Positions 2,251 through 37,257 of a DNA stretch of 64,000 nt are shown one piece after another. The first letter of the stretch is position 1; each line of letters opens with the position of its first letter. The translations under genes were made by a program, and so were the position numbers. Source of the stretch: a phage; assembly GCA_025611195.1 (NCBI GenBank), contig GCA_025611195.1_4718.1; one strand, written 5' to 3'. The notes beneath the pieces are model-generated. The model saw nothing but the letters and a program-made list of their open reading frames with translations. It was not told the origin of the DNA and did no database searches.

Positions 2251-3198
2251 TTAGCCTTGTTCTTCTGGAGAACGACCCTGGAGGCTTGCGGTATGTCCGT
2301 CGACGTTGTAATAGAAAATCAATGGACCGCCGACAGCAGTACAGTAGTTTTCATCCAGACTGATCTCGATACCGTATTGGTAACCCGCTCGTGCTGGAAT
2401 ACGTCCGCCTAACTCGCCGTTGAAAGCCACTTTAGCGTTATACAGGTTATACGGTGCGATGTTGTCGTCTAATACCCAACGGTCGGCGGTCATTTCAGCC
2501 AGAAGATCGGCGACCACCACATCGCTAATGACTGTACCTGTTACCAGCGAAGCCAGCTGCTCACCGTAATCGGAAGTATTGCGACTGTAACTGTAGATCT
2601 CACCGCTAGCGCGTACGCCCTGTCCGAAGAACTTAAGACCATCAAGCTCTTTGATTGCGATAATATCATCAAGATTCGGTACACGCGATTTCATCAAGAT
2701 ACGAACACTTCCCGTCCAAGCCAGGCAACTAGATACGACACGGAGCAATTGTCCGTTAACGGTATCCCAGTTAAGTTCGTCGTTGACAATTTCTTCTGCG
2801 GTAAGGCCGAGACCGAAACGTTCTTTGATGATAGGCCAGATATCACGCATCTTGGTGGCATCTGGCGCATCGATAAGAATAGGTGCTACGTTACGTAGAT
2901 ACGCACCGATGTTAATACGATCGTAATACAGCGTCGTCGAACCTTCATAATCGTCTAACTCGGTAAGCTTAGCGGTTGCTGTTGCCGTAATCTGGGTATC
3001 ACGCTCGTAGGCGCTTTGGTTGGTGGTTGGTGTCCCTAAAACCAATAATTCAGGGGTTAGAACATGTTCTCCGTTCTGAGGTGGGTTATCGTGGTTGATA
3101 AGACCATACACGAGATCGGATGAGGGTAAAGAGACGTCGACCGGGTAAAGTTCGGTGTCGTCAATAGTTGTTACCGTATCACTCACGGTGACCTCCAC
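2251..3198 (-). CDS. hypothetical protein, paralog of 1389-2240
   Basis: Track start is GTG at 3198; GGAGG then GTG at 3186 is an alternative start. Shares LAWTGSV and C-terminal ENYCTAVGG motif with 1389-2240. Confidence 0.7.
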   Translation of the reverse strand: MEVTVSDTVTTIDDTELYPVDVSLPSSDLVYGLINHDNPPQNGEHVLTPELLVLGTPTTNQSAYERDTQITATATAKLTELDDYEGSTTLYYDRINIGAYLRNVAPILIDAPDATKMRDIWPIIKERFGLGLTAEEIVNDELNWDTVNGQLLRVVSSCLAWTGSVRILMKSRVPNLDDIIAIKELDGLKFFGQGVRASGEIYSYSRNTSDYGEQLASLVTGTVISDVVVADLLAEMTADRWVLDDNIAPYNLYNAKVAFNGELGGRIPARAGYQYGIEISLDENYCTAVGGPLIFYYNVDGHTASLQGRSPEEQG

Positions 3199-3245
3199 GC
3201 CAGGAATTAATTAAAAAAGACTTTACGATTTGCTGCACTATCACG

Positions 3246-5657
3246 TTAAGCGTCCTCGATAGGCAAAGGTTTAACAATCAAACGATTGAGCGGATTCGAT
3301 AGACGCATACTGATAGGCTTATACGCAACATGATTCGTCTCACTTAGAACCGCTGACCTGAAACGACCATTCACCTGTTTGTAGATTGGTTCTATCCAAA
3401 GACCTCGAAGGTCATGTTTGCGGAAACGCTGTTCGAACGGTTTGATCGGGTTTATAGTCAGCCCATGCAACGACTCCGACAGTAAACGCTCACGAAGATC
3501 GCGTGGTGCCCGACCTGGGAACGGCGCAAGCCACAAACCATCGAGTGGGTTTTTACGGAAACGTAACGAGATAGGATCACTGACGACTTGTGCCCAATAT
3601 TGCGTACTGAATCGAACGGTTTGAGTATTCTCGTAACCGCTACAATCGCACCAGGTTGGTTTCGGAGGCGCTTCCAAACTTTCAACCGCTGATTCACGCC
3701 AGTTCGTCATCGGGTTGTTATCATGTACGAATTTGATAACTTCCGTAGCCTGGTTATCCGTATCGTGAACGTTTGCTTGCGCCCAGTCTTCCCACAGTTC
3801 TTCACTACCGCGTACTAAACTCGAACCAAGACGAACGGCGATTTTGTTTAGCGGCTTGATTGGATCGCTGTTGATTGTCTGGATAAAATGGATGGTGTAA
3901 CTGCTCAATGTCTTAAGCAGCTGCAGCATTCCGTATTGAATATCCTTAAGACTGGTGACATCTTCCAAATCTTGACCGGTGGCCTTTGTGAAGATATCGA
4001 GAGCTAGGATTCCCGCCTCTTCTTGACTGATTGCGTCAAGCTCCCAATCCATCGCTAAGAACCATTCCTTGTAAAGCTGACCGATACCGAAGTCGACACC
4101 AACATCCATGTAGAAATTTTCAACGATCGCTTCAGCCATGCCTCGAGCTTGATAATGTTCTTGGAGCTGGTACATGAACTGATGACGACGCCAGCCTTGG
4201 TAAATCTCGGTAACGACGTTGAGAAACTCTTCAGTACTGACGACCGCACGCAGCGTCACTTGCTTATCCAAACACCACCAGATCAGTTTATCGGGAATGA
4301 TAGCAGGATCGGTAATGCTGCGGAGATGGTCGAATGTCGGTAGCGTCAATACCCGGACATGGTTAGCATGTATCTTAGGTACTTCAATCAGCGTCATGCC
4401 CATCGAATAGTTAAGCAAGTACAAGAACAGCTTGTATGCATCTTTCATCGACATCGTCATGGTATCACCCGTCACCGGGTTGGTTGTCGTTAACCGTGAC
4501 TGATACATGCCTATTGCGCTAAGATGGATCCATTCATTCAGTAGGAAATCATACTTAGGATACAATTCACTGTCTGTAAGGTCTTCCGCTTCACTTTCCA
4601 ACACCTTGGTCGTTAAGGTGTTGTTGTCGTGCATCGACATCTTCTCTATTGTGCGGTTAAGCTCGGTATAATACTCTGCTTCGTTATCCCGCGCTAAAGG
4701 GAACTGTTGCTGCATCACGGTGGTGACCTTACGTCTTACCGTACCGTTGCCGACGATCTCTTGAAGGTTAAGCGGTTTACGCTCCATGTAAACTGTAGGT
4801 TTTAACGTCTGAGGTATCTCGGAAGCGTCTTGTTTGATCGAGAACGCACCGATTGGAATTCCACGTTCGGTTAATACCTTTTGAATGAGCTTATCGTAGT
4901 TTTCCGTTCTGCCCATGTTTCTTTCAACGTAAGCGATGTTACGATAGAACCAGAGCATTTGGGATTCGGTCATGTATCGCTCGAAACGATCGAGACCTTG
5001 ATGGCTTGCCAGATAACTCCAGATATGGAAGCTATGGGCATAATGGGTATGACAGTTTTCCCAACGAATACCTTTTATCATCTCAGGTATTTGTGTGAAT
5101 AGGATGGCGTATAACGCAGGCCAATGAAGCATATCGACGCTTTCATACGCCGGATGTTCCCAACGTCTAAAGTAGTCGTCGATTTCCTGCTGTAACCGTG
5201 GAATAAGGTTGGCCTCGCGCGATTCAACCTCTCGTGTATCGTACCAGAGAATCTCATGATTGCGTGCCGCAATTGCTTTCTCGATATCGATGGGGTTAAG
5301 GATACCCAAGATCAACATACGTTGTTCCGGGTACCGCGCAATTAAACGATTGAAATAATCTCCACCATACGCGTACTCCCTTGCCGTCATGCGGTGCCGT
5401 AACATGTTTTCCTTGGTGAACTCGATCTCTTCGAGCGTATCCAGGGAATTTACGGTCATCATTGTCTGACAAGGATGATACTCGCCAGCGAGATTCATGT
5501 AGTATAACCACGTGCGTGGGTCGTCCCCGACGGCCATCTGGTAGACTTCGGAAACCTTGAGGTTTAACCGTTCTGCCGTGATGTCGCTTTTAATAATCAG
5601 GGTGTCCGTTAGACGCTGCACGCTTTCCGAATAAAGCTGATAGTCAGTGTTGGACAC
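3246..5657 (-). CDS. hypothetical large protein with C-terminal RFRK-x-L-x-GLW internal repeat
   Basis: Track ORF 3246-5726 starts at TTG; in-frame GTG at 5657 follows GGAGGA SD. C-terminus has two copies of RFRK(N/H)xLxGLW(L/I)xP. Confidence 0.7.
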   Translation of the reverse strand: MSNTDYQLYSESVQRLTDTLIIKSDITAERLNLKVSEVYQMAVGDDPRTWLYYMNLAGEYHPCQTMMTVNSLDTLEEIEFTKENMLRHRMTAREYAYGGDYFNRLIARYPEQRMLILGILNPIDIEKAIAARNHEILWYDTREVESREANLIPRLQQEIDDYFRRWEHPAYESVDMLHWPALYAILFTQIPEMIKGIRWENCHTHYAHSFHIWSYLASHQGLDRFERYMTESQMLWFYRNIAYVERNMGRTENYDKLIQKVLTERGIPIGAFSIKQDASEIPQTLKPTVYMERKPLNLQEIVGNGTVRRKVTTVMQQQFPLARDNEAEYYTELNRTIEKMSMHDNNTLTTKVLESEAEDLTDSELYPKYDFLLNEWIHLSAIGMYQSRLTTTNPVTGDTMTMSMKDAYKLFLYLLNYSMGMTLIEVPKIHANHVRVLTLPTFDHLRSITDPAIIPDKLIWWCLDKQVTLRAVVSTEEFLNVVTEIYQGWRRHQFMYQLQEHYQARGMAEAIVENFYMDVGVDFGIGQLYKEWFLAMDWELDAISQEEAGILALDIFTKATGQDLEDVTSLKDIQYGMLQLLKTLSSYTIHFIQTINSDPIKPLNKIAVRLGSSLVRGSEELWEDWAQANVHDTDNQATEVIKFVHDNNPMTNWRESAVESLEAPPKPTWCDCSGYENTQTVRFSTQYWAQVVSDPISLRFRKNPLDGLWLAPFPGRAPRDLRERLLSESLHGLTINPIKPFEQRFRKHDLRGLWIEPIYKQVNGRFRSAVLSETNHVAYKPISMRLSNPLNRLIVKPLPIEDA

Positions 5658-11573: not shown

Positions 11574-11608
11574 TTCTTACGATCCTTTTTATTTTATTCG
11601 GTTATGTG

Positions 11609-13405
11609 TCAATCGATTATGTCACGATCGTTAATTTCTACAATTTCTTCATCGAATCGACCGACGTCTTTCTTCAAGCCTGCATTTGTTGCTGCAACGT
11701 CATTTGCGATTTGTGGGGTAATGATTAACCGACCGCGTTCATCGATAGGTGCGTACATACTGAACTTCTGACGTCCGGTTGGTTCGGAGTGTGGAAGATT
11801 CAGATAGCTTGCGCAGAACGGGATGGAACCACTCACCAAACGACTCTCGTCAGCCAACGCAGCACCGCCTGCATTTTGGCTCTGGAGAACAACATGCGTG
11901 CTCACTTTGAACAGCATGCAATCGCCCGGTGACTGAATCGATGTTGCCACTTTCTCACGCTTATCACGATTGCTCTGGATATTGAGAATCGCTTCCGTTG
12001 CAACTTGATTGCGCAACGCCTTCTGTACATCGCGATTGGTCATCTCTTTACGGTTGTTCTGTCGTTTACCACGTTCCGTGGTTTTAAGATGGAACCCCAG
12101 TTTAAAGATGCTTTTACGCACATCCTCCATGACGTATTCCAACACCATCAATTCCTTACCGAACATCGTCGTGGTATCAACACGACTCATTTCGATAGTA
12201 ACGTTGTCAATCAGATACGCCATAAATTCGTAGAAGTCGTCGCAAGGAATATTTTCCTGTTTGAACTTCTTCTGTTGAATTTCATCAACGTAAAGATCGA
12301 GACTGTCGATGTGGTGGTTTACATCACGCAACAAACGCGCATCCGCATTGTTGTTATTAAAGATAATCAAACCGAGTAATGTACGCCAATGGTCTGGCGC
12401 ATTAGCGAACTCTTCAACCGGATAGTCTTCCGGGAAACGATCGTAATAACGGTCGATGAGATATAAGAACGCGCCGACAAGGCCAAGAACAATACGTTCC
12501 GTACCTCCACGTCTTACAGCGATTTGAATATCGGGATGTTTATAACGTACAGCGTTAGCGCTACGGCTTTTACCGCTTTTGCTGATACTAAAGCCTTTAG
12601 GAATAACCCCCATGGTGCGATAGATTACCCATTGGTCGCGCGGAAAATCGCGTTCAGCAAGATTCCGTCCGGTGACGGCTTCGACGCCAGCAAAACGTCG
12701 GAAACATTCACCCACCCCATACTTCGCAAAGAGATAGTGACCCAGTGTGGTTACGCTGGTGTGGTTGATGTTGTCACCGTTCACTTTACTTTGTTTGGTA
12801 AGATGATAGATTTGCGACCAGGGTAACGACAGGTAATGACGATAATCGATACCCGTTGGTGTATCATTGCTCAGGAACTGATACGGTGTACGTTTAACCG
12901 TGATTTTGTCACGCGGAAGCATGATGAACGCCATGTCTTTCGTGTAACTGATTACAGGGTCAGCGAGCACTGCACTGAGAATGAAGTTCGCACCACGTAG
13001 ACGCATTTTACCACCCTGACCTACCGCGGGCAATAGGAGAGGATGTCGGATAATGCAGTAGTCCTTTCCTGGTTCGCGGCGGTCACCTGATTCCATCGCA
13101 CCATACCAGCGGAATTCTAGCATCACCATAAACACGTCGGAAGGTGCAAGGTCGAAGGTCAGCTTACCGCTATCCTTCCCTTTGGTTTTCTTTCCTCCGC
13201 TTAAGTAGTGGAACTGTTCGCGGGCCATACAACGACGCAGGCCATGATACACCAGATCCTTAGGTAAACTATCTTTGCTGTTCCGCCAAAGACGATCAAC
13301 ATAGGACTCAACATCTTGCATCTTATCGACGACGATGTTGCGTGCTATCTTCTCGTTCATCTTCGGTGCAAGCTCAGCGACAGCTTTGCAGAATCTAGGA
13401 TCCAT
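11609..13405 (-). CDS. hypothetical protein (598 aa)
   Basis: AAAGGAG SD before ATG 13405; no P-loop or polymerase motif recognised. Confidence 0.8.
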   Translation of the reverse strand: MDPRFCKAVAELAPKMNEKIARNIVVDKMQDVESYVDRLWRNSKDSLPKDLVYHGLRRCMAREQFHYLSGGKKTKGKDSGKLTFDLAPSDVFMVMLEFRWYGAMESGDRREPGKDYCIIRHPLLLPAVGQGGKMRLRGANFILSAVLADPVISYTKDMAFIMLPRDKITVKRTPYQFLSNDTPTGIDYRHYLSLPWSQIYHLTKQSKVNGDNINHTSVTTLGHYLFAKYGVGECFRRFAGVEAVTGRNLAERDFPRDQWVIYRTMGVIPKGFSISKSGKSRSANAVRYKHPDIQIAVRRGGTERIVLGLVGAFLYLIDRYYDRFPEDYPVEEFANAPDHWRTLLGLIIFNNNNADARLLRDVNHHIDSLDLYVDEIQQKKFKQENIPCDDFYEFMAYLIDNVTIEMSRVDTTTMFGKELMVLEYVMEDVRKSIFKLGFHLKTTERGKRQNNRKEMTNRDVQKALRNQVATEAILNIQSNRDKREKVATSIQSPGDCMLFKVSTHVVLQSQNAGGAALADESRLVSGSIPFCASYLNLPHSEPTGRQKFSMYAPIDERGRLIITPQIANDVAATNAGLKKDVGRFDEEIVEINDRDIID

Positions 13406-15218: not shown

Positions 15219-17441
15219 TCAGTTAGTCTGAACCGGCAGCTTGATGTTTTCAGTGTAGACCTTACGCAGGTTCACAACGTTAATCAGACCCAGCAGCGGG
15301 CAGTTGTTAACGAAGCGGCAGCGAGGCTGAACCATGGTTTCTTTAGAAACCTGACCGTTACGGGTAACCTGAGCAACAGATACCAGTTCCGGTACATACA
15401 GGAACATACCGAAGGTCAGCGGATCCGGAGAACCCTGGATACCACGAGACAGGGTCACGAAGATCTTATCACGCAGCAGGACGTTCGGGTTATCTACAAC
15501 CACGAAGTTGAAGCTTACACCAACGGTACGGAAATCACCATCGGTCTGCAGGAACTGCGGGATGTAGTTGTCGGTTGCTACTACGCAACGCGGTTTCTCA
15601 TCAGCGTTGGAAGACAGCAGCTGCAGAGCTGGCTGATAACCAGACTCGGAGTACATGCGATATGCCATCTCACGAATCACGTTCATGATCGCAGCGGACA
15701 CTTCGGCACGACGTTCTGCAGTGGTGGTACCCTGAACAGATTTCGCCAGGTCCAGATTGATTTCTTCGAACCACGGACGGATCAGGTAACGACCGAAACC
15801 TTCGATCTGGATATCACCGAACTGACGGAAGCGAGAGGTCGCAACCGCTTTCAGTGCATCTTTGTAGCTGAACAGTTTCTCAACCATCAGGTTGTCGAAA
15901 CGTGCGTTAGCAGCTTGGATCAGAACGTCCAGGTCAGCAGCGTTTTCTTCCCAATCCAGCGGACGAGGAATAGAGAACGGAGCCAGCAGGCCGATTGCGT
16001 AACGTTCTTGCTTCATGTTGAAGTCAAGGTGTTTACCACGTTCACGACGGTTGCTGTTGTTACGGCGAATACGCAGTTCGTAACCAACCAGTTTGAAGCT
16101 CAGGTCGTCAGCCAGGTCTTTAAATTCTTGGCTCTTACGCGGCTGTTCGATGTTGTCCTGATCAACCAGGCGATACAGTTCAGCGTTAGCACCGTTAACA
16201 CGCAGACCTGCTTTCTCTACGTTGGAAGAACCGTAAACTTCGATAGCCAGCTGAGCAGCAGATTTCGCATCGATGATGTCCTGCAGCGCTTCAGCTTTCG
16301 CGCCTTTAACGTCAACGGTGTTCTCATCAACGAAGATGGAGTGGGTGTCGAACGCCAGGGTCATTTTGCGGAAGTCGCCTTCCAGGGATTTCTGGAAACC
16401 GTTGGTAATCAGACCGGATACGTCGAACGGAACGTAAGAGGTCTTGCTGTGCTTGGCTGATTTGATTTCCACCAGGATTTTGGTCAGCGTGATCTGAGCA
16501 TCCAGCGCGTCGGTGTTGTCGCTGTAACCGTTAGCCAGAATGCTATCGTCTTCAGCGATACCGATCATGTCGATCAGTTTATCAACAGCCAGGTAAGACG
16601 TTTTGTAAGTTACGCCTTTGATCTCGATGTCGCGCGGAGCAACGATAGTTTTGTCAACGAAGTACTGCGCGTTAGCATCGTCAGCACGATAGATCGGATG
16701 CAGATCGGTCACGTCGTTGGACAGAACGTCGTTGTACATGAACGCATCCAGCAGCGGACGACGTACCCAATCAGCCGGAGTACCGTCAGCGTTACGACGC
16801 AGGTGGTTGAACACCAGCGGACGACGGAAAGATACATCATAACCGATCTGGTTCGGAGCCAGAACGATGGTGTTGTACAGTTCGTTACCCATGCGGCTCA
16901 GACGAGAAGCCTTCACGTTGAACACAACGGAGTACGGCATCATGTCACGCAGTTCTTTCTGGTCGTAGGACAGCTGAACCAGTTCTTCAGATTCGCAACC
17001 GCAGGAATCAGCAGCCATCATGACGAAGTTAGAGCTGTCAACTTCACGGCCAGACGGAGTGGTGCTGATGTTCATGGAACGTGCTTGTTTAGCATATTCC
17101 ACCGGGTTGCCATGAGCCAGCATGATCAGTGCTGCTGCACGAGCCTGCTGTGCGTTCATGGTGAACAGCTGTTCTTCAATACGCTGCTTCTCTTCCGGAG
17201 TGGTGGTTTCGAAGCCCAGCATGGACAGAACCGGTTCTTCTGCTTTACGGATGTCGCTGCTGAAGCTCTTAACATCCATATCGTTAACCAGTTTGTCCAT
17301 GGATTTGAAATCAACCTTAGAAGCAGATTCCATAGACAGGAAGGTGTTCTCCAGACCTTTGTCTGCTGGTTTGCTACCATTAGCGGTCAGGAACTGGCGA
17401 GTGGCCGCGACCTGTTGGCTAAGAAGGGTTTTATCATTCAT
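15219..17441 (-). CDS. putative major capsid protein (740 aa, phiKZ-like size class)
   Basis: AAAGGA SD before ATG 17441; codon usage strikingly different from neighbours (CTG, CGT, GGT, AAC, ACC, TTC dominate), consistent with very high expression. The antisense track ORFs 15144-16460 and 16698-17444 are by-products of that bias. Confidence 0.55.
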   Translation of the reverse strand: MNDKTLLSQQVAATRQFLTANGSKPADKGLENTFLSMESASKVDFKSMDKLVNDMDVKSFSSDIRKAEEPVLSMLGFETTTPEEKQRIEEQLFTMNAQQARAAALIMLAHGNPVEYAKQARSMNISTTPSGREVDSSNFVMMAADSCGCESEELVQLSYDQKELRDMMPYSVVFNVKASRLSRMGNELYNTIVLAPNQIGYDVSFRRPLVFNHLRRNADGTPADWVRRPLLDAFMYNDVLSNDVTDLHPIYRADDANAQYFVDKTIVAPRDIEIKGVTYKTSYLAVDKLIDMIGIAEDDSILANGYSDNTDALDAQITLTKILVEIKSAKHSKTSYVPFDVSGLITNGFQKSLEGDFRKMTLAFDTHSIFVDENTVDVKGAKAEALQDIIDAKSAAQLAIEVYGSSNVEKAGLRVNGANAELYRLVDQDNIEQPRKSQEFKDLADDLSFKLVGYELRIRRNNSNRRERGKHLDFNMKQERYAIGLLAPFSIPRPLDWEENAADLDVLIQAANARFDNLMVEKLFSYKDALKAVATSRFRQFGDIQIEGFGRYLIRPWFEEINLDLAKSVQGTTTAERRAEVSAAIMNVIREMAYRMYSESGYQPALQLLSSNADEKPRCVVATDNYIPQFLQTDGDFRTVGVSFNFVVVDNPNVLLRDKIFVTLSRGIQGSPDPLTFGMFLYVPELVSVAQVTRNGQVSKETMVQPRCRFVNNCPLLGLINVVNLRKVYTENIKLPVQTN

Positions 17442-17590: not shown

Positions 17591-18211
17591 TCACAAACGA
17601 CGCAGGCGATAATGGATGGAACGATTGGTGCAATATGAACGGAACAGCGGCAATTGCGCAACTTCCGCAAGACTCATATTAATTCGCAGATGTTCAATAA
17701 CGGCGCTGTAGTTATCAGCAATACGATCGCTCAATAACTCTTCTGCCAATAAAGGAAGACAATCGACAACAATCGCGATCACATCCTCATTAACATAACG
17801 CACCCGAACACTCAACGGACGTTTGTCTGGGCTGTAAGTTGGATCCGCCAAACGACGTTCAATATCACGCGGATAGCTCGTCAGTAAATGGTAATAACCA
17901 TTGTCATAACGATTGATGTACTCACACAGCACATCAACATTCTTCTCCGACGGCAAACCTGTTTCGTCATAGTGATACGCAAACATACCACCAAGTAGGT
18001 TGTTAAGATGTACCGCAGGGTTCGCTTGTTCGTGTTCTTTCGTGATGAAGAAAGGCACGTTTTGGGCTGCGAAATAAAAACCTACATCATTGGGCGATAG
18101 TATGCCGAAAAGACTTTTAGGATCCAACAGCACCTGTAAGTCATCACGCGCATTTCGAATAATCGCGTGTTCTACCCAATTCGGAACGACGAGATATCGG
18201 AGTTCCTTCAT
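17591..18211 (-). CDS. hypothetical protein (206 aa)
   Basis: AGAGG SD before ATG 18211; divergent from the helicase gene. Confidence 0.7.
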   Translation of the reverse strand: MKELRYLVVPNWVEHAIIRNARDDLQVLLDPKSLFGILSPNDVGFYFAAQNVPFFITKEHEQANPAVHLNNLLGGMFAYHYDETGLPSEKNVDVLCEYINRYDNGYYHLLTSYPRDIERRLADPTYSPDKRPLSVRVRYVNEDVIAIVVDCLPLLAEELLSDRIADNYSAVIEHLRINMSLAEVAQLPLFRSYCTNRSIHYRLRRL

Positions 18212-18250
18212 TATGATTACCTCTTTGCAAGTATCGAAAGGATTGAGTCG

Positions 18251-19861
18251 ATGGACCCAAAACAGATAGCCATTAAGATTATTACGTTACTGTTTCGTAA
18301 CGCACAATTGAACCATCCCGATCCCAGTACGATCGACCATGTTAAATCCGTCTTAGATAAAGTCGAACCCCCGAAAAACCATCTCGCTACGGACATAGAT
18401 AGAGAGGTTTTCAACAACCTGATGAATACCATTCATTGGATGCTGGAACAACCGTTATCGGAACCTTTCGACAAACAACAGTTGTTACAAAGGATACGTT
18501 TAGATTGCCTTGAGCAAAGCAATCTTTACGAGATTCTTGCCGACGGACTGTACGATATCGAAGACGATGCTCATATCAGTAAGGTCTGTTCGCTTTATTA
18601 CAACGAATTGCGTAACCTGGTTACCCGCCGTCGTGTTTTCGAAACCTTTAGAAACACGTACATGGATATCAGTAACGGGCGACTTGGGGATAAAGAATTT
18701 TTCGATGCGATGGCGAATTTGAAATTATCGCTTGATAGTATCGAAATGGATACCGAAAATCCCGAAGAGATGTCGTGTATGGTTGATGGCTTTATTGCCG
18801 ACAGCGAAGACGATATCGAGAAAGTCGAACGCATGTTCGTCAAAGCGATGGAACGTAACAGTCCTGAAGGTGGGTTTGTAACCGGCTGGCAAGGTTTTAA
18901 TAAAATGTTGGGGTCGGTCGGCGTTTTACGTCGCGGTACCTTAGGACTGATTGGTGCAATGCAGCACCGAAATAAATCGGGTGTGTTGTTAAAACTGTTC
19001 ACGCATCTGGCATTGTACAATAAACCTCATTTCTTTTTTCCGGAGCGAGCAAAGAAAGCATTACTGATTCATTTGTCAACAGAAAACGAAGTAGAAGAAA
19101 ACACGCTTCAGATATACAAGAACATGCGAGAACAGGAAACAGGCGAATATGTCGATATTCGTAAGATTGACCCTCGCGAGGCATCACGTTATGTGTTGAA
19201 GGTGTTCAACGATGCGGGTTTCTCTGTTTGTATGCGCCGTGTTGACGGGATGAGTTACAAACAACTCGCTAATCTCATCGACCATTTCGAACGCATGGGT
19301 TATGAGGTCATGGCGTTGTTCATTGACTATCTGAAAATGTTCTCATCGGAAGGGCTGGATAGAAATGGACCGACCGGCGCATGGCTACAAGAACTCTTCA
19401 ACAAAGTCCGTAACCTCTGCAGTGTTAAACGTATTTTAGGTATGACCGTACACCAGCTGTCATCCGACGCGAAGATGCGCGCACGTGATGGTAACGACGA
19501 AGAGTTTGTTGACCAGGTCGCAGGCTTAAGTTACTGGGATGGTTGTAAAGGGATTGACCGTGAGATCGATCTTGAAGTGATTGTTGATATCGTTAAGGAA
19601 CCGGGTAAACGTCAAAGCTGGCAAGTCTTTGCATTAGGGAAGGACCGTCAACCGGATAACGGTTCAACAAAACCTGAGGATAAACATTTCACAATGCCAT
19701 TCCAAACCATCGGGATGCTTCCTGATGATTACGGTAAGAAAGCAGTATACTGCCGTAAGGTTGGTGGACAACCGGTCTCCGAGGGAGGTAAAGGTCCGTG
19801 GAACAAATTCGATGAAAATGCAGCACCGAGTAATGAATTACAATTTGATTTAGAATTTTAA
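18251..19861 (+). CDS. DnaB-family (RecA-fold) replicative helicase homolog with atypical Walker A
   Basis: AAAGGA SD before ATG 18251 (track ORF starts 18167 and overlaps the divergent gene). Motifs: MALFIDYLKMF (Walker B-like), MTVHQLSSDAK (DnaB QLNR-like), GKDRQPDNG; P-loop position reads GAMQHRNKSG rather than GxxxxGK(S/T). Confidence 0.7.
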   Translation: MDPKQIAIKIITLLFRNAQLNHPDPSTIDHVKSVLDKVEPPKNHLATDIDREVFNNLMNTIHWMLEQPLSEPFDKQQLLQRIRLDCLEQSNLYEILADGLYDIEDDAHISKVCSLYYNELRNLVTRRRVFETFRNTYMDISNGRLGDKEFFDAMANLKLSLDSIEMDTENPEEMSCMVDGFIADSEDDIEKVERMFVKAMERNSPEGGFVTGWQGFNKMLGSVGVLRRGTLGLIGAMQHRNKSGVLLKLFTHLALYNKPHFFFPERAKKALLIHLSTENEVEENTLQIYKNMREQETGEYVDIRKIDPREASRYVLKVFNDAGFSVCMRRVDGMSYKQLANLIDHFERMGYEVMALFIDYLKMFSSEGLDRNGPTGAWLQELFNKVRNLCSVKRILGMTVHQLSSDAKMRARDGNDEEFVDQVAGLSYWDGCKGIDREIDLEVIVDIVKEPGKRQSWQVFALGKDRQPDNGSTKPEDKHFTMPFQTIGMLPDDYGKKAVYCRKVGGQPVSEGGKGPWNKFDENAAPSNELQFDLEF

Positions 19862-21312: not shown

Positions 21313-21383
21313 TTTACCTTTCTATGTTAGGTGGATTGCGGATAGAAGAATCAATGCATAAACTAATTTAAGTTTGTTAAGGT

Positions 21384-22286
21384 TTACTTAGCCTTTGAGT
21401 TATGCGGACTAACATGCTGTTGTACTCGTTGGATTGTATCGTAGTACGGGTTAGATTGGTTGAACATGTTGTTGTGTGGGGGATAGCCATATGGCGCATT
21501 TTGCCTTGTTGGTGAGAAACCTTGTTGAGAAGGACGGTTTGAATTAACCGCGAGTACGTAGTAAACCAAATTTTGACGGTCGAATGTTCCTTCGTTTTTG
21601 AAAGTGTCGGCGTAGGCTTTTACCGCTGGAGTGAGCCTATCACCATCGGCTGTAATAATTGTACCGTCTGGGTAAACTTCCCGAACGACGCACCATGTTC
21701 CGATGAGAACATCTTTAGGTGCTGTATTACCATATCCGGTTGTAACGGTAAGGTAAGTATCGAACCCTTCAGAACAACAAGGATGACGATAGATGGGTCC
21801 TGTCATTTCCGTTCTATCGGTATCGCTACATTGTTCTATTGAGAGCGATGATGTGTCGGTTTTGAAATTGTCAAATTCTTTCTTTAAGTCGATTACGGGT
21901 TCTTTCGTATAGTACTTCTTGATTGCTTTGACGTAAAGATCAGGAACGGTTGTCAGCAATCCGTTATACCTGATTCTCAGGTTTTCGAGTAATCCAAAGA
22001 TGCTCGCGCATGCCTGTTCGCGAGGTTTTGTAAGATAAGAGATCCCCTCAGGAACGCTGGGATCTTTGAGAAAGAAGATTGCGTTATTGTCGTTGTGCGA
22101 TGCGTTGAAGAAAACGATTGATTCGATATATACGGAGCATAGGCTGTCATTGGCGTCGTCAGATAACACCCAGATGCACTCATCGGTCGTCTTGTTTAAA
22201 AGTTCTGTTTTGTCGACCAAACGTTGTTTCATTGCGAGGAAATGTGCCTGTTGTTCAGCAGTTAATTCACGATAAATAGTGGTCAT
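21384..22286 (-). CDS. hypothetical protein, Cys-containing paralog of 22372-23145
   Basis: AAGGAG SD before ATG 22286 (track start 22364). Shares (G/K)PIY(R/I)HP(C/E)C...YL(T/T)(V/I)T.G...REVYPDG(T/R)I with the upstream gene. Confidence 0.7.
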   Translation of the reverse strand: MTTIYRELTAEQQAHFLAMKQRLVDKTELLNKTTDECIWVLSDDANDSLCSVYIESIVFFNASHNDNNAIFFLKDPSVPEGISYLTKPREQACASIFGLLENLRIRYNGLLTTVPDLYVKAIKKYYTKEPVIDLKKEFDNFKTDTSSLSIEQCSDTDRTEMTGPIYRHPCCSEGFDTYLTVTTGYGNTAPKDVLIGTWCVVREVYPDGTIITADGDRLTPAVKAYADTFKNEGTFDRQNLVYYVLAVNSNRPSQQGFSPTRQNAPYGYPPHNNMFNQSNPYYDTIQRVQQHVSPHNSKAK

Positions 22287-22331
22287 GTTGGGCTCCTTGA
22301 TTACGATAAGGATGATTGCGGTTTTGTGGGT

Positions 22332-22364
22332 TTGGTAGGGCCCTAAACAAAGGAACCCTACCAA
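22332..22364. terminator. hairpin between the two Cys-containing paralogs
   Basis: ttggtaggg-(15-nt loop)-ccctaccaa, 9-bp stem. Confidence 0.4.
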
Positions 22365-22371
22365 TATTAGG

Positions 22372-23145
22372 TTAATCAGGATCGGCGTAGAAATGGTGAG
22401 GATAGCCGGAGTACGATCCTGCGTTACCGGCTATGGATTCTTTCTGGGAATCGACGACGAGCGCATAGAACTGTCGGGAATTTGTTAGCGTTGAGAAATA
22501 AGCGGAAAGGACTTTTTCATTCAATGCATCACAAGGTAGGCAGGTGCGACCGCAAAACGTCACGATACGGCCGTCAGGATAGATCTCACGAATCATTCTC
22601 CACTCACCGATATCCACTGGTGATGGCGCTGCTACACCACCTGTTATCGTTAAGTAACGATCGTACGTGGTATGGCATTCAGGATGAATATAGATCGGCT
22701 TGTTCGTTTCGACAGGTTCCGAAGTATCTCGACGACTAAGAAGCTCAACGACTTCAAGATAAATCGTTGGTAGATCGCGGAGAATACCGGTGCTACGACG
22801 TTTCTTTGTGATTCGCGGACGAATCTCGTTGAGAGCGTATTCGAGCTTACGTTCAGCTTCGTACGCATCGAGTTTTATCAAGCGACCCGGTTCATCGGAA
22901 TGATCCTGAGTTACGTAAACGAAATACGTGTCGCCTTTTGCAGCGTGAAAGATTCGAGCGACCTTAAATGTTTCTACGGTACGATAACCAAGGCGCGATT
23001 GATTTTCCACAGGAGAAAATATCCAATGCCGTCCTTCGTCAGCCTCAACAATTTCGTTGAAACTATCTGTCTGTTCTGGGACCTGGTAGTCAGCCAGTAA
23101 TGTGTCGAGAGCATCATCAGCCAGTTTGATGTAAATATCTGTCAT
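22372..23145 (-). CDS. hypothetical protein, Cys-containing paralog of 21384-22286
   Basis: GAGGA SD before ATG 23145; C-terminal KPIYIHPECHTTYDRYLTITGG...IREIYPDGRIVTFCGRTCLPC. Confidence 0.75.
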   Translation of the reverse strand: MTDIYIKLADDALDTLLADYQVPEQTDSFNEIVEADEGRHWIFSPVENQSRLGYRTVETFKVARIFHAAKGDTYFVYVTQDHSDEPGRLIKLDAYEAERKLEYALNEIRPRITKKRRSTGILRDLPTIYLEVVELLSRRDTSEPVETNKPIYIHPECHTTYDRYLTITGGVAAPSPVDIGEWRMIREIYPDGRIVTFCGRTCLPCDALNEKVLSAYFSTLTNSRQFYALVVDSQKESIAGNAGSYSGYPHHFYADPD

Positions 23146-23230: not shown

Positions 23231-23259
23231 TGGAGTAATGCGCTTAAGACAGCATAAAC

Positions 23260-23291
23260 CCCTCTCCCAACCCGTCAGGGAAGGGAGAGGG
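23260..23291. terminator. GC-rich hairpin (CCCTCTCCC family)
   Basis: ccctctccc-aa-ccc-gtca-ggg-aa-gggagaggg; immediately after the stop of 23296-24663. Confidence 0.6.
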
Positions 23292-23295
23292 AATA

Positions 23296-24663
23296 TTAAA
23301 CGGTTGGACGAACGGTATTGTCTTTTTCTGGTGCGATCCATAACGTGACCGTACCATGGCATGTCCACTGTGGTTCACGTACAGAAGAACCCGCCATCGT
23401 TACAGCGCAATCGGTACGCATGATGACCCCATATGCTTCGCAGAGGTTGTTATCCTGCATCCACACAACTTTAGCGGGCATACCGGGATACAACAGATCC
23501 ATGTTTGCGTATTCCCACACCAACTGCATTGTTCTACCGCGTAATCCAGCAGTATTGCTTATTTCACGCCATCGGTTATCGGTTACGCGTCCCATCCCTT
23601 TCGCCACCTTCACGTTATCGCTACGCTCTTCAGTTACGTACTCGCTAACGTTTACGGTACGACTGATTATGGTATCGCCCCCCTTTGATAATGTCATCCC
23701 CTGACTCATCTGACTTGCCGAAACAAAACGCCCACCCGCATTACCTAACAACGAAGCCGCGTTATTGACGTCGCTTACCGACGCCCCTCTCGTACATGCA
23801 ATTTCCACGTATTTGTCGCGATTGATCCAGGTCTTGTCCATACCCGGAAACATATCGGCAGGATAGTTGTAAAAGATAGCTGTACGTCGACCGTCAGAGA
23901 AACGGGTTTCGTCGTATAAGGGGTAGATATACAGATACGGGGATTGATAATAACAACCGACATCTGCTGAATAAATACCAACCTGGTTCTGGATTTTATC
24001 TACGAGATCCATCGCATTGGTACCGTGTGGAAGAATAAGCAACTTGAATGGGTTGTCGTTATTCGGTGCAACGATATCCACACCCTGCATTTTGAATCCG
24101 GTGTCAGCTTCAACCGCAGAAAGTATCTTGCTGAATTCAAGGCGCAACACATCCAGCACTTTCGATCCAGTATAGTTCTCACCGGTTTCTGATTGCATGA
24201 AGCTTTCAAGAACAGGATCGAACAGTTGAAATTGAAGATCGACCATTTGTTCGTAGTCTTTCTTCGAAGAATCGGTTGCGGTACGTTCGTCGGTAGCAGA
24301 CATACGACTGTCTACGGTTGTTAAACAGACCGCCCGGTAGACATAAGCCTGTGCGGCATCGTCTACGGTTTGGCGTTGTCCGCGCATCAGGCTGTACGCC
24401 TGCACGATGATGCGCATTTTAAGTTGTTGTTGGTACGGTAGAATGTATTTTCCGTAACTGCCTGGTGGAAACTTTACAGAGATATAAAGTTCATCCCCTG
24501 CGTTACGTTCATAGTCTCGATACGTGTGGACTTGAGTCACTAAAGGAACAGACACCGTCATTGACGGCGTGATTAATTCCGCGGTGACTTTATACGCAAC
24601 AGCAACAGCTTCCTGCGCAAACGTACCGATATACCGTCCTAACGGCGTCTGTTTGTAATCCAT
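23296..24663 (-). CDS. hypothetical protein (455 aa), first visible gene of a six-gene operon, possibly structural
   Basis: Long ORF; 3-nt gap to the next gene; no catalytic motif. Confidence 0.8.
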   Translation of the reverse strand: MDYKQTPLGRYIGTFAQEAVAVAYKVTAELITPSMTVSVPLVTQVHTYRDYERNAGDELYISVKFPPGSYGKYILPYQQQLKMRIIVQAYSLMRGQRQTVDDAAQAYVYRAVCLTTVDSRMSATDERTATDSSKKDYEQMVDLQFQLFDPVLESFMQSETGENYTGSKVLDVLRLEFSKILSAVEADTGFKMQGVDIVAPNNDNPFKLLILPHGTNAMDLVDKIQNQVGIYSADVGCYYQSPYLYIYPLYDETRFSDGRRTAIFYNYPADMFPGMDKTWINRDKYVEIACTRGASVSDVNNAASLLGNAGGRFVSASQMSQGMTLSKGGDTIISRTVNVSEYVTEERSDNVKVAKGMGRVTDNRWREISNTAGLRGRTMQLVWEYANMDLLYPGMPAKVVWMQDNNLCEAYGVIMRTDCAVTMAGSSVREPQWTCHGTVTLWIAPEKDNTVRPTV

Positions 24664-37155: not shown

Positions 37156-37203
37156 GTGTTGTCTCCAGTAATGATTCAAAAGATAAACCTGGACGGCATA
37201 TAA

Positions 37204-37235
37204 CCCTCTCCCAACCCGTAAGGGAAGGGAGAGGG
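37204..37235. terminator. GC-rich hairpin downstream of the highly expressed 37258-38583 gene
   Basis: ccctctccc-aa-ccc-gtaa-ggg-aa-gggagaggg; minus-strand TATATG follows (plus 37197-37202), 42 nt before ATG 37155. Confidence 0.65.
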
Positions 37236-37257
37236 AATATATCAGTCTATTAACTGA

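Follow-up and report, generated by a model that had tools for sequence, protein, structure and literature searches.

A DnaB-like gene with an altered nucleotide-binding loop

Does a DnaB-type helicase whose nucleotide-binding loop departs from the canonical Walker A sequence still serve as the replicative motor of its phage, or has it lost that activity and taken on another role? The question is raised by a gene on a phage contig (GenBank assembly GCA_025611195.1), of which a stretch of 64,000 nucleotides, the window in what follows, was analysed. The window DNA is ~95-96% identical to Escherichia phage Goslar (Chimalliviridae). The gene and its ribosome-binding region are as follows:

18251..19861, plus strand: coding sequence of a divergent DnaB-like replicative helicase of 536 aa (from the open reading frame list and homology)
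18238..18242, plus strand: AAGGA, resembling a Shine-Dalgarno sequence, 8 nt ahead of the start codon at 18251 (direct reading of the sequence)

All homologs start at the equivalent of the ATG at 18251 (the MDxK position); the mechanical open reading frame opens earlier, at the GTG at 18167. The scan for intrinsic terminators around the gene returned none, and the sigma-70 scan returned fewer promoter-like sites there than in shuffled sequence; because chimalliviruses use their own RNA polymerases, neither scan is informative.

As a discovery the gene carries little weight, being a near-identical copy of an annotated Goslar gene, and its variant P-loop is a family-wide feature that is already known from the curated Pfam family PF20307 and from Iyer et al. 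2021 (PMC7824862), who described the divergent DnaB together with its modified nucleotide-binding motif. What we add is small: the loop lies in the exact register of the DnaB Walker A, the residue before its lysine is variable with the canonical Gly recurring, and the catalytic residues are invariant or nearly so. Taken together, these three observations make an active enzyme the default expectation for experiments. The gene matters because the replisome of nucleus-forming phages, with its divergent polymerase, its divergent DnaB and no known primase, is biochemically unexplored, and the helicase offers an entry point to it. Our search of the literature on Goslar gp043, phiKZ gp118 and 201phi2-1 gp197 found only statements on localisation and comparative genomics, and turned up neither biochemistry nor a structure for any member of the family.

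Homology to DnaB and purifying selection

The initial annotation, made from the letters of the sequence, called the product a DnaB-family helicase homolog with a non-canonical P-loop, and this identification is borne out by Pfam, PHROG, hhalign and Foldseek results and by the Walker A reading GAMQHRNKSG. PF20307 (divDNAB, "Divergent DnaB-like ATPase") is matched at 402.1 bits, where 26 is the curated gathering threshold (E = 2.1e-120), over aa 151-513 of the helicase and positions 3-355 of the 356 in the profile, and the same family is matched by all 18 of the 18 aligned homologs. The PHROG family phrog_3213, 'DnaB-like replicative helicase', matches the protein as well (E = 8e-123).

The relationship to DnaB proper is much stronger than chance would give. 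Alignment of the family against a DnaB alignment with hhalign gave a probability of 96.9% (E = 1.7e-10) over 263 columns, covering aa 149-448, and the DnaB motifs Walker A, SLEM, Walker B, SQLN and EQDAD all fell in register with the family. Pfam DnaB_C (PF03796) is matched directly by five of the 18 close homologs (best E = 2.9e-7); the helicase query alone falls below the thresholds of both PF03796 and the DnaB N-terminal family (PF00772), and NCBIfam holds no model for the protein. Likewise, a search of PDB sequences with the family profile reaches DnaB chains (E = 5e-4), whereas a single-sequence phmmer search of PDB sequences returned nothing relevant, DnaB being reached by the family profile only. 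When an HMM built from five DnaB sequences was run against all open reading frames of the window, the helicase scored E = 0.14, a weak value that shows how far it has diverged from DnaB; no other reading frame scored better, and no second DnaB-like gene was found with this HMM among the window's reading frames.

Orthologs of the gene, with names taken from a note in the 201phi2-1 record, are Goslar gp043, phiKZ gp118, 201phi2-1 gp197 and RAY gp315, and the 201phi2-1 protein is 31% identical to the helicase (E = 6e-75). A tblastn search found a single copy in each of 282 jumbo-phage records. The coding sequence has 96.2% DNA identity to Goslar and its product differs from gp043 at 7 of 536 amino acids; 56 codons have changed synonymously, the seven replacements are all conservative and none falls in a motif. 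The gene is thus under purifying selection.

Domain architecture and predicted fold

Four regions were delimited along the protein:

18251..18754, plus strand: N-terminal region, aa 1-168, helical throughout and similar to the DnaB N-terminal domain (AF2 models)
18806..18856, plus strand: predicted linker helix, aa 186-202, joining the N-terminal region to the RecA-like domain (AF2 secondary structure)
18863..19795, plus strand: RecA-like ATPase domain, aa ~205-515 (PF20307, hhalign, Foldseek)
19796..19858, plus strand: disordered C-terminal tail, aa 516-536, ending ...GKGPWNKFDENAAPSNELQFDLEF, acidic and aromatic, Phe-terminal (pLDDT <50)

The AF2 model, which was computed with no ligand and with only 18 sequences as input, shows five short helices in the N-terminal region and, after them, a long hairpin of two helices (H106-141 and H147-168); in hhalign the linker helix falls on the equivalent stretch ahead of the Walker A in E. 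coli DnaB. With the full-length model (pLDDT 80.5) as query, the top 50 PDB hits of Foldseek were all DnaB, G40P or T4 gp41 (best E = 4e-17, ~500 aligned columns). For aa 1-205 alone nine of the ten top hits were DnaB chains, four of them isolated N-terminal domains, at values that are statistically weak (E from 0.018 to 0.3, a probability of 0.95 for the match with E = 0.018, TM 0.26-0.43). In the family the C-terminal tails have a Gly-rich stretch and after it a P-[FW]-[WF]-[DE]-like motif, and they end in Phe in 42 of 171 members.

The variant Walker A loop

The loop on which the question turns is located in the RecA-like domain:

18953..18982, plus strand: variant Walker A GAMQHRNKSG, aa 235-244 (aligns with no gap to the DnaB Walker A)

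Two profile methods fix its register. HMMER aligns vigaLqhnfKtG gap-free to IVAARPSVGKTA of B. stearothermophilus DnaB, and hhalign aligns IGAMQHRNKSGV gap-free to VAARPSMGKTTF of E. coli DnaB. The view of the initial annotation that the spacing of the motif is off was therefore mistaken, as both methods place the loop without gaps on DnaB AARPS(M/V)GKT, in identical register, and the DnaB Walker A itself begins with Ala. The other departure it reported, Asn in place of the Gly before the Lys, is real and is the sole change relative to the DnaB register: Lys242 and Ser243 are retained, Asn241 stands where Gly is expected and Gly244 follows. The loop, A-M-Q-H-R-N-K-S, accordingly does not fit the canonical [AG]xxxxGK[ST]. 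A correct alignment placing a canonical GxxxxGK(S/T) elsewhere in the protein had been named as the finding that would speak against this reading; a motif scan of the whole protein detected no other [AG]xxxxGK[ST], and a K[ST] dipeptide occurs just once more, as K32-S in the N-terminal domain. All the motifs quoted from the translation were recovered, namely GAMQHRNKSG at aa 235-244, IDYLKMF at aa 358-364, HQLSSDAK at aa 401-408 and GKDRQPDNG at aa 463-471.

Conservation was counted over 171 diverse family members, mostly less than 50% identical. Lys242 and Ser/Thr243 are each present in 171/171, while the position immediately before the Lys is occupied by Tyr (70), Phe (65), Asn (18), Trp (7), Gly (4), His (4) or Ser (1). 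The remaining columns of the loop are more uniform, with L/M237 in 163, Q238 in 116, H239 in 149 and G244 in 156 of the 171. The same variation is seen among named orthologs, 201phi2-1 gp197 having the canonical AALQHQGKS, a phiKZ-like phage GGLQHQYKSG and Goslar GAMQHRNKSG. The four representatives bearing Gly241 are mutually unrelated (28-30% identity), and in three of these four the Gly two residues after the Lys is absent (Fisher p = 0.002, not corrected for phylogeny). The Gly lost before the Walker A Lys is probably compensated by the Gly two residues after it.

The Gly before the Lys aids the backbone bend and stabilises the alpha-phosphate (PMC9599734), and Asn, Tyr or Phe in its place could alter nucleotide binding. 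In the AF2 model the helix starts at His239, three residues ahead of the Lys; if this helix start is real, the anion hole would be shorter than the canonical one.

A possible alternative is that the helicase is active and that the remodelling of its P-loop is adaptive rather than neutral, the aromatic residue or Asn before the Lys, the Gln-His pair and the later Gly altering the nucleotide used, its affinity or its coupling. Examples would be a preference for dNTP or dTTP, as in T7 gp4, or a tuning to the nucleotide pools of the phage nucleus. The strong conservation of LQH-x-[YFN]-K-[ST]-G suggests that one particular alternative geometry is under selection, as opposed to drift, and both the contact that the replaced Gly normally makes with the alpha-phosphate (PMC9599734) and the extension of the helix into the loop in the AF2 model point in the same direction. 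The residue before the Lys is, however, the most variable of the loop, and canonical Gly recurs at this position in four unrelated lineages and in 201phi2-1 gp197, a recurrence that a strict new specificity dependent on this residue would not readily explain. On balance we regard adaptive remodelling as unlikely.

Carried further, the pattern [AG]-L-Q-H-x-[YFNW]-K-[ST]-G, with its Gly shifted from before the Lys to two residues after it, would constitute a distinct nucleotide-binding geometry in the replicative helicase of most nucleus-forming phages, one that might alter NTP/dNTP preference or coupling, and in that case the C-terminal tail, acidic, aromatic and conserved, would serve as a handle to the divergent family B polymerase. 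We give this extended proposal little credence; were it true, the NTP/dNTP preference might suit the phage nucleus and a replisome with no known primase.

Conservation of the other catalytic residues

Outside the loop, four further motifs were located:

19073..19087, plus strand: LSTEN, aa 275-279, in which Glu278 corresponds to the catalytic Glu of DnaB SLEM (aligned to FSLEM of Aquifex and E. coli DnaB)
19316..19336, plus strand: Walker B LFIDYLK, aa 356-362, with Asp359 and Tyr360 (aligned to DnaB IDYLQL)
19451..19462, plus strand: HQLS, aa 401-404, in which Gln402 corresponds to the gamma-phosphate sensor Gln of DnaB SQLNR (aligned to SQLS/SQLN)
19637..19648, plus strand: GKDR, aa 463-466, putative trans-acting K-x-R fingers as in DnaB GKxRNG (motif and spacing)

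Glu278 and Asp359 are found in 171/171 family members, Tyr360 in 170/171, the sensor Gln402 in 168/171, and Lys464 and Arg466 of the K-x-R motif in 167/171 each. The role of K-x-R in DnaB, KaiC and T7 gp4 has been described (PMC9599734). In the DnaB alignment the invariant K440, R442 and G444 lie at a similar distance after the Asp of EQDAD as GKDR does here; because the significant hhalign alignment ended at aa 448, the equivalence of the two K-x-R motifs is drawn from motif and position. The catalytic set of V. cholerae DnaB comprises the Thr following the Walker A Lys, the Walker B Asp, the Tyr following that Asp, the Glu, the Gln, Lys437 and Arg439 (PMC9599734), and the conserved positions of the family correspond to it.

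Catalytic residues that are invariant or nearly so, next to a variable residue before the Lys, indicate an active ATPase and not a dead loader or regulator, and judging by these sequence patterns the helicase is most likely an active enzyme. Iyer et al. also judge the divergent DnaB catalytically active (PMC7824862). The initial annotation had offered two readings, an ATPase that may bind nucleotide unusually and an inactive helicase-like loader or regulator, and the second of these finds no support in a family whose catalytic residues are kept in 167-171 of 171 members and in which orthologs with the canonical Gly exist. In its broader form, a catalytically dead DnaB-like loader, scaffold or regulator would draw solely on the one-position departure from GxxxxGK[ST] and on this phage group having no known primase to partner it. 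Set against it are the near invariance of the residues for Mg-NTP binding and hydrolysis and of the trans fingers, residues of a kind that pseudo-enzymes typically lose, the orthologs with a fully canonical AxxxxGKS, the lack of any other DnaB-like gene in the window that could be the real helicase, and the treatment of the gene as the replicative helicase in the chimallivirus literature (PMC7824862, PMC10299810). A dead protein is in our judgement very improbable.

Genomic context and the phage nucleus

The order of major capsid protein gene, small gene and divergently transcribed helicase gene is the same in Goslar, 201phi2-1 and the phiKZ-like SL2. The small intervening gene was considered as a homolog of phiKZ gp119 and 201phi2-1 gp198, an assignment that we rejected since BLASTP showed no similarity between it and 201phi2-1 gp198 (phiKZ gp119). 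The helicase gene is located among structural genes and not in a replication module. Previous work uses the replicative helicase as a conserved chimallivirus marker, assigns the capsid gene and a helicase to core block 5 of these phages, and has located gp315, the ortholog in RAY, within the phage nucleus (PMC10299810). No primase of the DnaG or archaeo-eukaryotic (AEP) type can be recognised in group 1 jumbo phages (PMC7824862), which leaves the DnaB N-terminal collar without its usual partner, and jumbo phages depend heavily on recombination (PMC7824862).

The absence of a recognisable primase, this heavy reliance on recombination (PMC7824862) and the position of the gene among structural genes would fit an active RecA-fold hexameric motor whose main work is not the unwinding of forks but, for instance, recombination or branch migration, as with RadA/Sms, or recombination-dependent restart of replication. 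The predicted collar, linker helix and RecA domain, as well as the best fold and profile matches, are nevertheless those of DnaB and gp41 and not of RadA/Sms; moreover, a second DnaB-like gene is absent from the window, and in the literature it is this gene that is called the replicative helicase (PMC7824862, PMC10299810). Of the explanations weighed here, we consider a motor working mainly outside fork unwinding the least probable.

A probable replicative helicase with a tolerated P-loop change

Homology, fold, the conservation of catalytic residues, purifying selection and conserved synteny bring us to the explanation that we hold to be highly probable: the gene gives a Goslar-like chimallivirus its replicative helicase, a hexameric DNA helicase of the DnaB type (superfamily 4) in which the change in the P-loop is lineage-wide and tolerated and no function has been lost. 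Hexamer formation, ATPase activity, unwinding and the compensation within the P-loop we infer from these properties. By homology to DnaB, the helicase would be translated in the cytoplasm and then imported into the phage nucleus, where its subunits may assemble into a ring of two tiers, the helical collar being N-terminal and the RecA-like motor C-terminal. Such a ring would encircle single-stranded DNA, and sequential NTP hydrolysis at the subunit interfaces would drive translocation. At each site Lys242 and Ser243 may bind phosphate and Mg2+, Asp359 of Walker B and Glu278 would handle Mg2+ and the catalytic water, Gln402 would sense the gamma-phosphate, and Lys464 and Arg466 would reach in from the neighbouring subunit as the K-x-R fingers.

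Comparison with known systems

The closest relatives are the PF20307 proteins of group 1 (phiKZ-like, Chimalliviridae), with Goslar gp043, phiKZ gp118, 201phi2-1 gp197, EL gp76 and RAY gp315 as members, with which the helicase has in common homology over the full length, the variant P-loop pattern and the place beside the major capsid gene. The Goslar-like clade departs from the family consensus in having Asn and not Tyr or Phe before the Lys, GKDR and not GKHR, Ala270 and Val400 where the consensus has Pro, and a longer acidic C-terminal tail. Nothing distinguishes the protein from Goslar gp043.

With DnaB of E. coli, B. stearothermophilus and V. cholerae, SPP1 G40P and T4 gp41 the helicase has in common a predicted two-tier architecture and the motifs of the RecA-like core in the same order and register (Lys-Ser/Thr, the SLEM Glu, Asp-Tyr, the SQLN Gln and an EQDAD-like Asp), and also a putative GKxR motif, equated by motif and position. 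It differs from them in being only 12-16% identical and in carrying the loop MQHRN instead of RPSMG, and from DnaB in that its phage group has no known DnaG primase partner (PMC7824862).

The helicase domain of T7 gp4 is likewise an SF4 RecA-like hexameric helicase, and the primase domain fused to it is absent here. When profiles were compared with T7 gp4 alone, the match fell short of significance (probability 0.5%, E = 0.11), and its placement of K242 on the GKS of gp4 is not counted as evidence. In T7 gp4 an acidic C-terminal tail ending in Phe contacts the polymerase, and an acidic tail ending in Phe is a feature that the helicase shares with it.

Relationship to the DnaB helicases

The DnaB relationship of the protein is far beyond chance. 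The initial annotation had recognised in it a DnaB homolog with a non-canonical P-loop, and this reading was borne out by PF20307, PHROG 3213, hhalign and Foldseek, with Asn standing in place of the Gly before the Walker A Lys; all the motifs that it quoted were found in the translation (GAMQHRNKSG at aa 235-244, IDYLKMF at aa 358-364, HQLSSDAK at aa 401-408 and GKDRQPDNG at aa 463-471). The gene and its C-terminal extension are located as follows:

18251-19861, + strand: helicase CDS, the single long ORF of the region, encoding 536 aa
19796-19858, + strand: C-terminal tail (aa 516-536), disordered (pLDDT below 50), acidic and aromatic, with Phe as last residue

The mechanical ORF opens at GTG 18167; the real start is the initially annotated ATG at 18251. 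AAGGA lies 8 bases upstream of it, and all homologs begin at the same MDxK position. The protein scored 402 bits (cut-off 26, E 2e-120) against Pfam PF20307, 'Divergent DnaB-like ATPase' (the divDNAB family), and matched PHROG 3213, 'DnaB-like replicative helicase', end to end (E 8e-123). The divDNAB profile built from 18 members matched DnaB chains in the PDB and, when compared by hhalign with a five-member DnaB alignment, gave a probability of 96.9% (E 1.7e-10, 263 columns), while five of the 18 homologs reached Pfam DnaB_C independently. The top 50 PDB matches retrieved by Foldseek with the AlphaFold2 model (mean pLDDT 80.5) were all DnaB, G40P or T4 gp41 (best E 4e-17), in alignments of about 500 columns that spanned both tiers.

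The N-terminal half is modelled as five short helices followed by a long hairpin of two helices (106-141 and 147-168), with a linker helix (186-202) joining it to the RecA domain, a predicted layout that resembles that of DnaB. Searched alone, aa 1-205 placed DnaB chains on top, weakly (E 0.018-0.3, TM 0.26-0.43), some of these being isolated N-terminal domains (DnaB of M. tuberculosis and of B. stearothermophilus); against the Pfam DnaB N-terminal model the protein gave no match.

The feature is already catalogued; the divergent DnaB family and its modified motif were described by Iyer et al. 2021 (PMC7824862). In the divDNAB alignments Walker B (IDYL, hhhDYL) is intact and DnaB-like and Walker A is the modified motif, and we suspect that the 'B' used in naming the modified ATP-binding motif in section 3.4.1 of PMC7824862 is a slip in the text. 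Literature searches found no enzymology or experimental structure of any divDNAB member.

The Walker A loop and the catalytic residues

The spacing of the loop, initially described as off, is that of DnaB. HMMER aligned the family loop vigaLqhnfKtG with IVAARPSVGKTA of B. stearothermophilus DnaB, and hhalign aligned IGAMQHRNKSGV with VAARPSMGKTTF of E. coli DnaB, in both cases gap-free. DnaB's own Walker A also opens with Ala, therefore the register A-x4-[G]-K-[ST] is kept exactly in the helicase and the sole departure from DnaB is the change of Gly to Asn before the Lys. A scan of the rest of the 536-aa protein for a canonical GxxxxGK[ST], which would have undermined the initial reading, found none, the sole other K[ST] dipeptide lying in the N-terminal domain.

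The exhaustive divDNAB profile search, conducted on representatives of clusters at 50% identity, recovered 1,528 with E-values up to 1e-3, of which 652 had E-values up to 1e-30, and tblastn located the family in 282 jumbo-phage records, with Pseudomonas, Erwinia, Salmonella, Vibrio, Serratia, Aeromonas, Klebsiella and Ralstonia among the hosts. The family alignment comprised 171 sequences, namely the query and 170 others (23 close homologs and the best 150 of the 1,528 representatives, three being common to both).

Residues in the 171-sequence divDNAB alignment
Lys242 (Walker A): 171/171
Ser/Thr243: 171/171
Glu278: 171/171
Asp359: 171/171
Tyr360: 170/171
Gln402: 168/171
Lys464: 167/171
Arg466: 167/171
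Gly244 (two after Lys242): 156/171
Position 241 (before Lys242): Tyr 70, Phe 65, Asn 18, Trp 7, Gly 4, His 4, Ser 1

Among named phages, the Walker A of 201phi2-1 gp197 (2992-4524 of locus L009) is AALQHQGKSY, fully canonical and of the DnaB type, that of the phiKZ-like phage SL2 is GGLQHQYKSG and that of Goslar is GAMQHRNKSG. These loops and the family counts indicate that position 241 is the one freely evolving site in an otherwise frozen active site, with orthologs alternating between canonical and non-canonical forms. The four Gly241 representatives share only 28-30% identity with one another, and their nearest neighbours have Phe or Tyr.

Replacing the Gly before the Lys is not trivial, because that Gly aids the bending of the backbone and stabilises the alpha-phosphate (Kozlova et al., PMC9599734). 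Gly241 and Gly244 tend toward mutual exclusion in the family alignment: Gly244 is absent in three of the four Gly241 members and in 12 of the 167 others (Fisher p = 0.002, on small numbers and uncorrected for phylogeny). The conservation of Gly244 and its tendency to vanish when the canonical Gly returns suggest that the Gly two residues after the Lys is a compensating shift for the lost one. In the AlphaFold2 model, which is ligand-free and built from 18 sequences, a helix begins three residues ahead of the Lys, at His239, and this could correspond to a shorter anion hole.

Genomic context and relation to Goslar

The sole megablast match of the helicase gene was Escherichia phage vB_EcoM_Goslar (96.2% identity), where the counterpart is HOV27_gp043, named 'DnaB-like replicative helicase' in RefSeq and 'hypothetical protein' in GenBank. 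Over at least 51 kb, and with one insertion excepted, the window runs colinear with Goslar (about 95% identity), and it therefore belongs to a Goslar-like, nucleus-forming member of the Chimalliviridae. Sixty-three helicase codons differ from Goslar, 56 synonymously and seven by conservative replacements, all outside the motifs, which points to strong purifying selection on the gene. In the 201phi2-1 record, gp197 is given as the equivalent of phiKZ gp118 and EL gp76. The neighbouring genes are:

15219-17441, - strand: major head protein, 740 aa (phrog_3231, E 6.5e-165), adjoining the 206-aa gene
17591-18211, - strand: 206-aa gene, divergent from the helicase gene and lying between it and the capsid gene
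21384-22364, - strand: ORF of 326 aa, inside the insertion
22372-23145, - strand: ORF of 257 aa, inside the insertion

The 206-aa gene sits where phiKZ gp119 and 201phi2-1 gp198 (virion structural protein) do. It had no Pfam or PHROG match and no BLASTP similarity to 201phi2-1 gp198, and would be either very diverged from these genes or non-orthologous to them. About 5 kb from the helicase gene, beyond the capsid gene, lies the stretch colinear with Goslar gp039, an annotated 598-aa 'polymerase' (about 11608-13404, - strand), which may encode a divergent family B DNA polymerase; Iyer et al. (PMC7824862) paired the divergent DnaB with such a polymerase.

The 1.78-kb insertion (21361-23140) lies 1.5 kb downstream of the helicase gene, and Goslar has only about 90 bp between the same flanks. 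Its two ORFs are paralogous (37% identity across the C-terminal 119 aa, E 5e-17), gave no Pfam or PHROG match, and look like a pair of accessory genes particular to this strain. A GC-rich hairpin (ACCCCTCTCCCAACCCGTxAGGGAAGGGAGAGGGAATAT, about 45 bp) occurs twice in near-identical intergenic copies, at 23252-23296 and 37192-37240, after - strand genes. Read on the - strand, it is followed by a T-rich stretch and therefore probably serves the - strand operons as a reused intrinsic terminator; further putative terminators are marked in the corresponding region of the Goslar record.

Probable replicative role and comparison with known helicases

It was initially proposed that the protein might be an inactive loader or regulator. 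This finds no support in the alignment, where Lys242, Ser/Thr243, Glu278 and Asp359 are invariant, nor in the existence of canonical-loop orthologs, and the conservation pattern fits an active NTPase rather than a pseudo-enzyme. We consider it likely that the protein is the phage's working replicative helicase. Prichard et al. 2023 (PMC10299810) count the replicative helicase among six conserved marker proteins of chimalliviruses, assign a helicase and the capsid gene to core block 5 and show that gp315, the ortholog in RAY, is found within the nucleus of the phage; reviews restate that the phage DNA helicase is nuclear. DnaG-type and AEP primases are both reported to be absent from the group 1 jumbo phages (PMC7824862). 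That the remodelled loop alters nucleotide usage in a replisome with no known primase seems to us improbable; if true, it would be of moderate interest to replication specialists.

The catalytic inventory of V. cholerae DnaB, comprising the Thr after the Walker A Lys, Asp340, Tyr341, Glu259, Gln381, Lys437 and Arg439, the last two being the K-x-R fingers common to DnaB, KaiC and T7 gp4 (Kozlova et al. 2022, PMC9599734), matches the conserved positions of the divDNAB family, with Lys464 and Arg466 as the putative counterparts of the fingers by motif and spacing. By homology, the protein would form a DnaB-like two-tier hexamer and translocate along ssDNA, powered by NTP sites at the subunit interfaces, each of which would be made of Lys242, Ser243, Glu278, Asp359, Tyr360 and Gln402, with Lys464 and Arg466 supplied by the neighbouring subunit.

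Across the family the tails are disordered, Gly-rich at first and then acidic and aromatic, with a P-[FW]-[WF]-[DE]-like motif after the Gly-rich part, and Phe is the last residue in 42 of the 171 members, including the protein studied here. The tail of T7 gp4 binds the polymerase; the tail of the phage helicase recalls it and, by this analogy, may be a partner-binding peptide.
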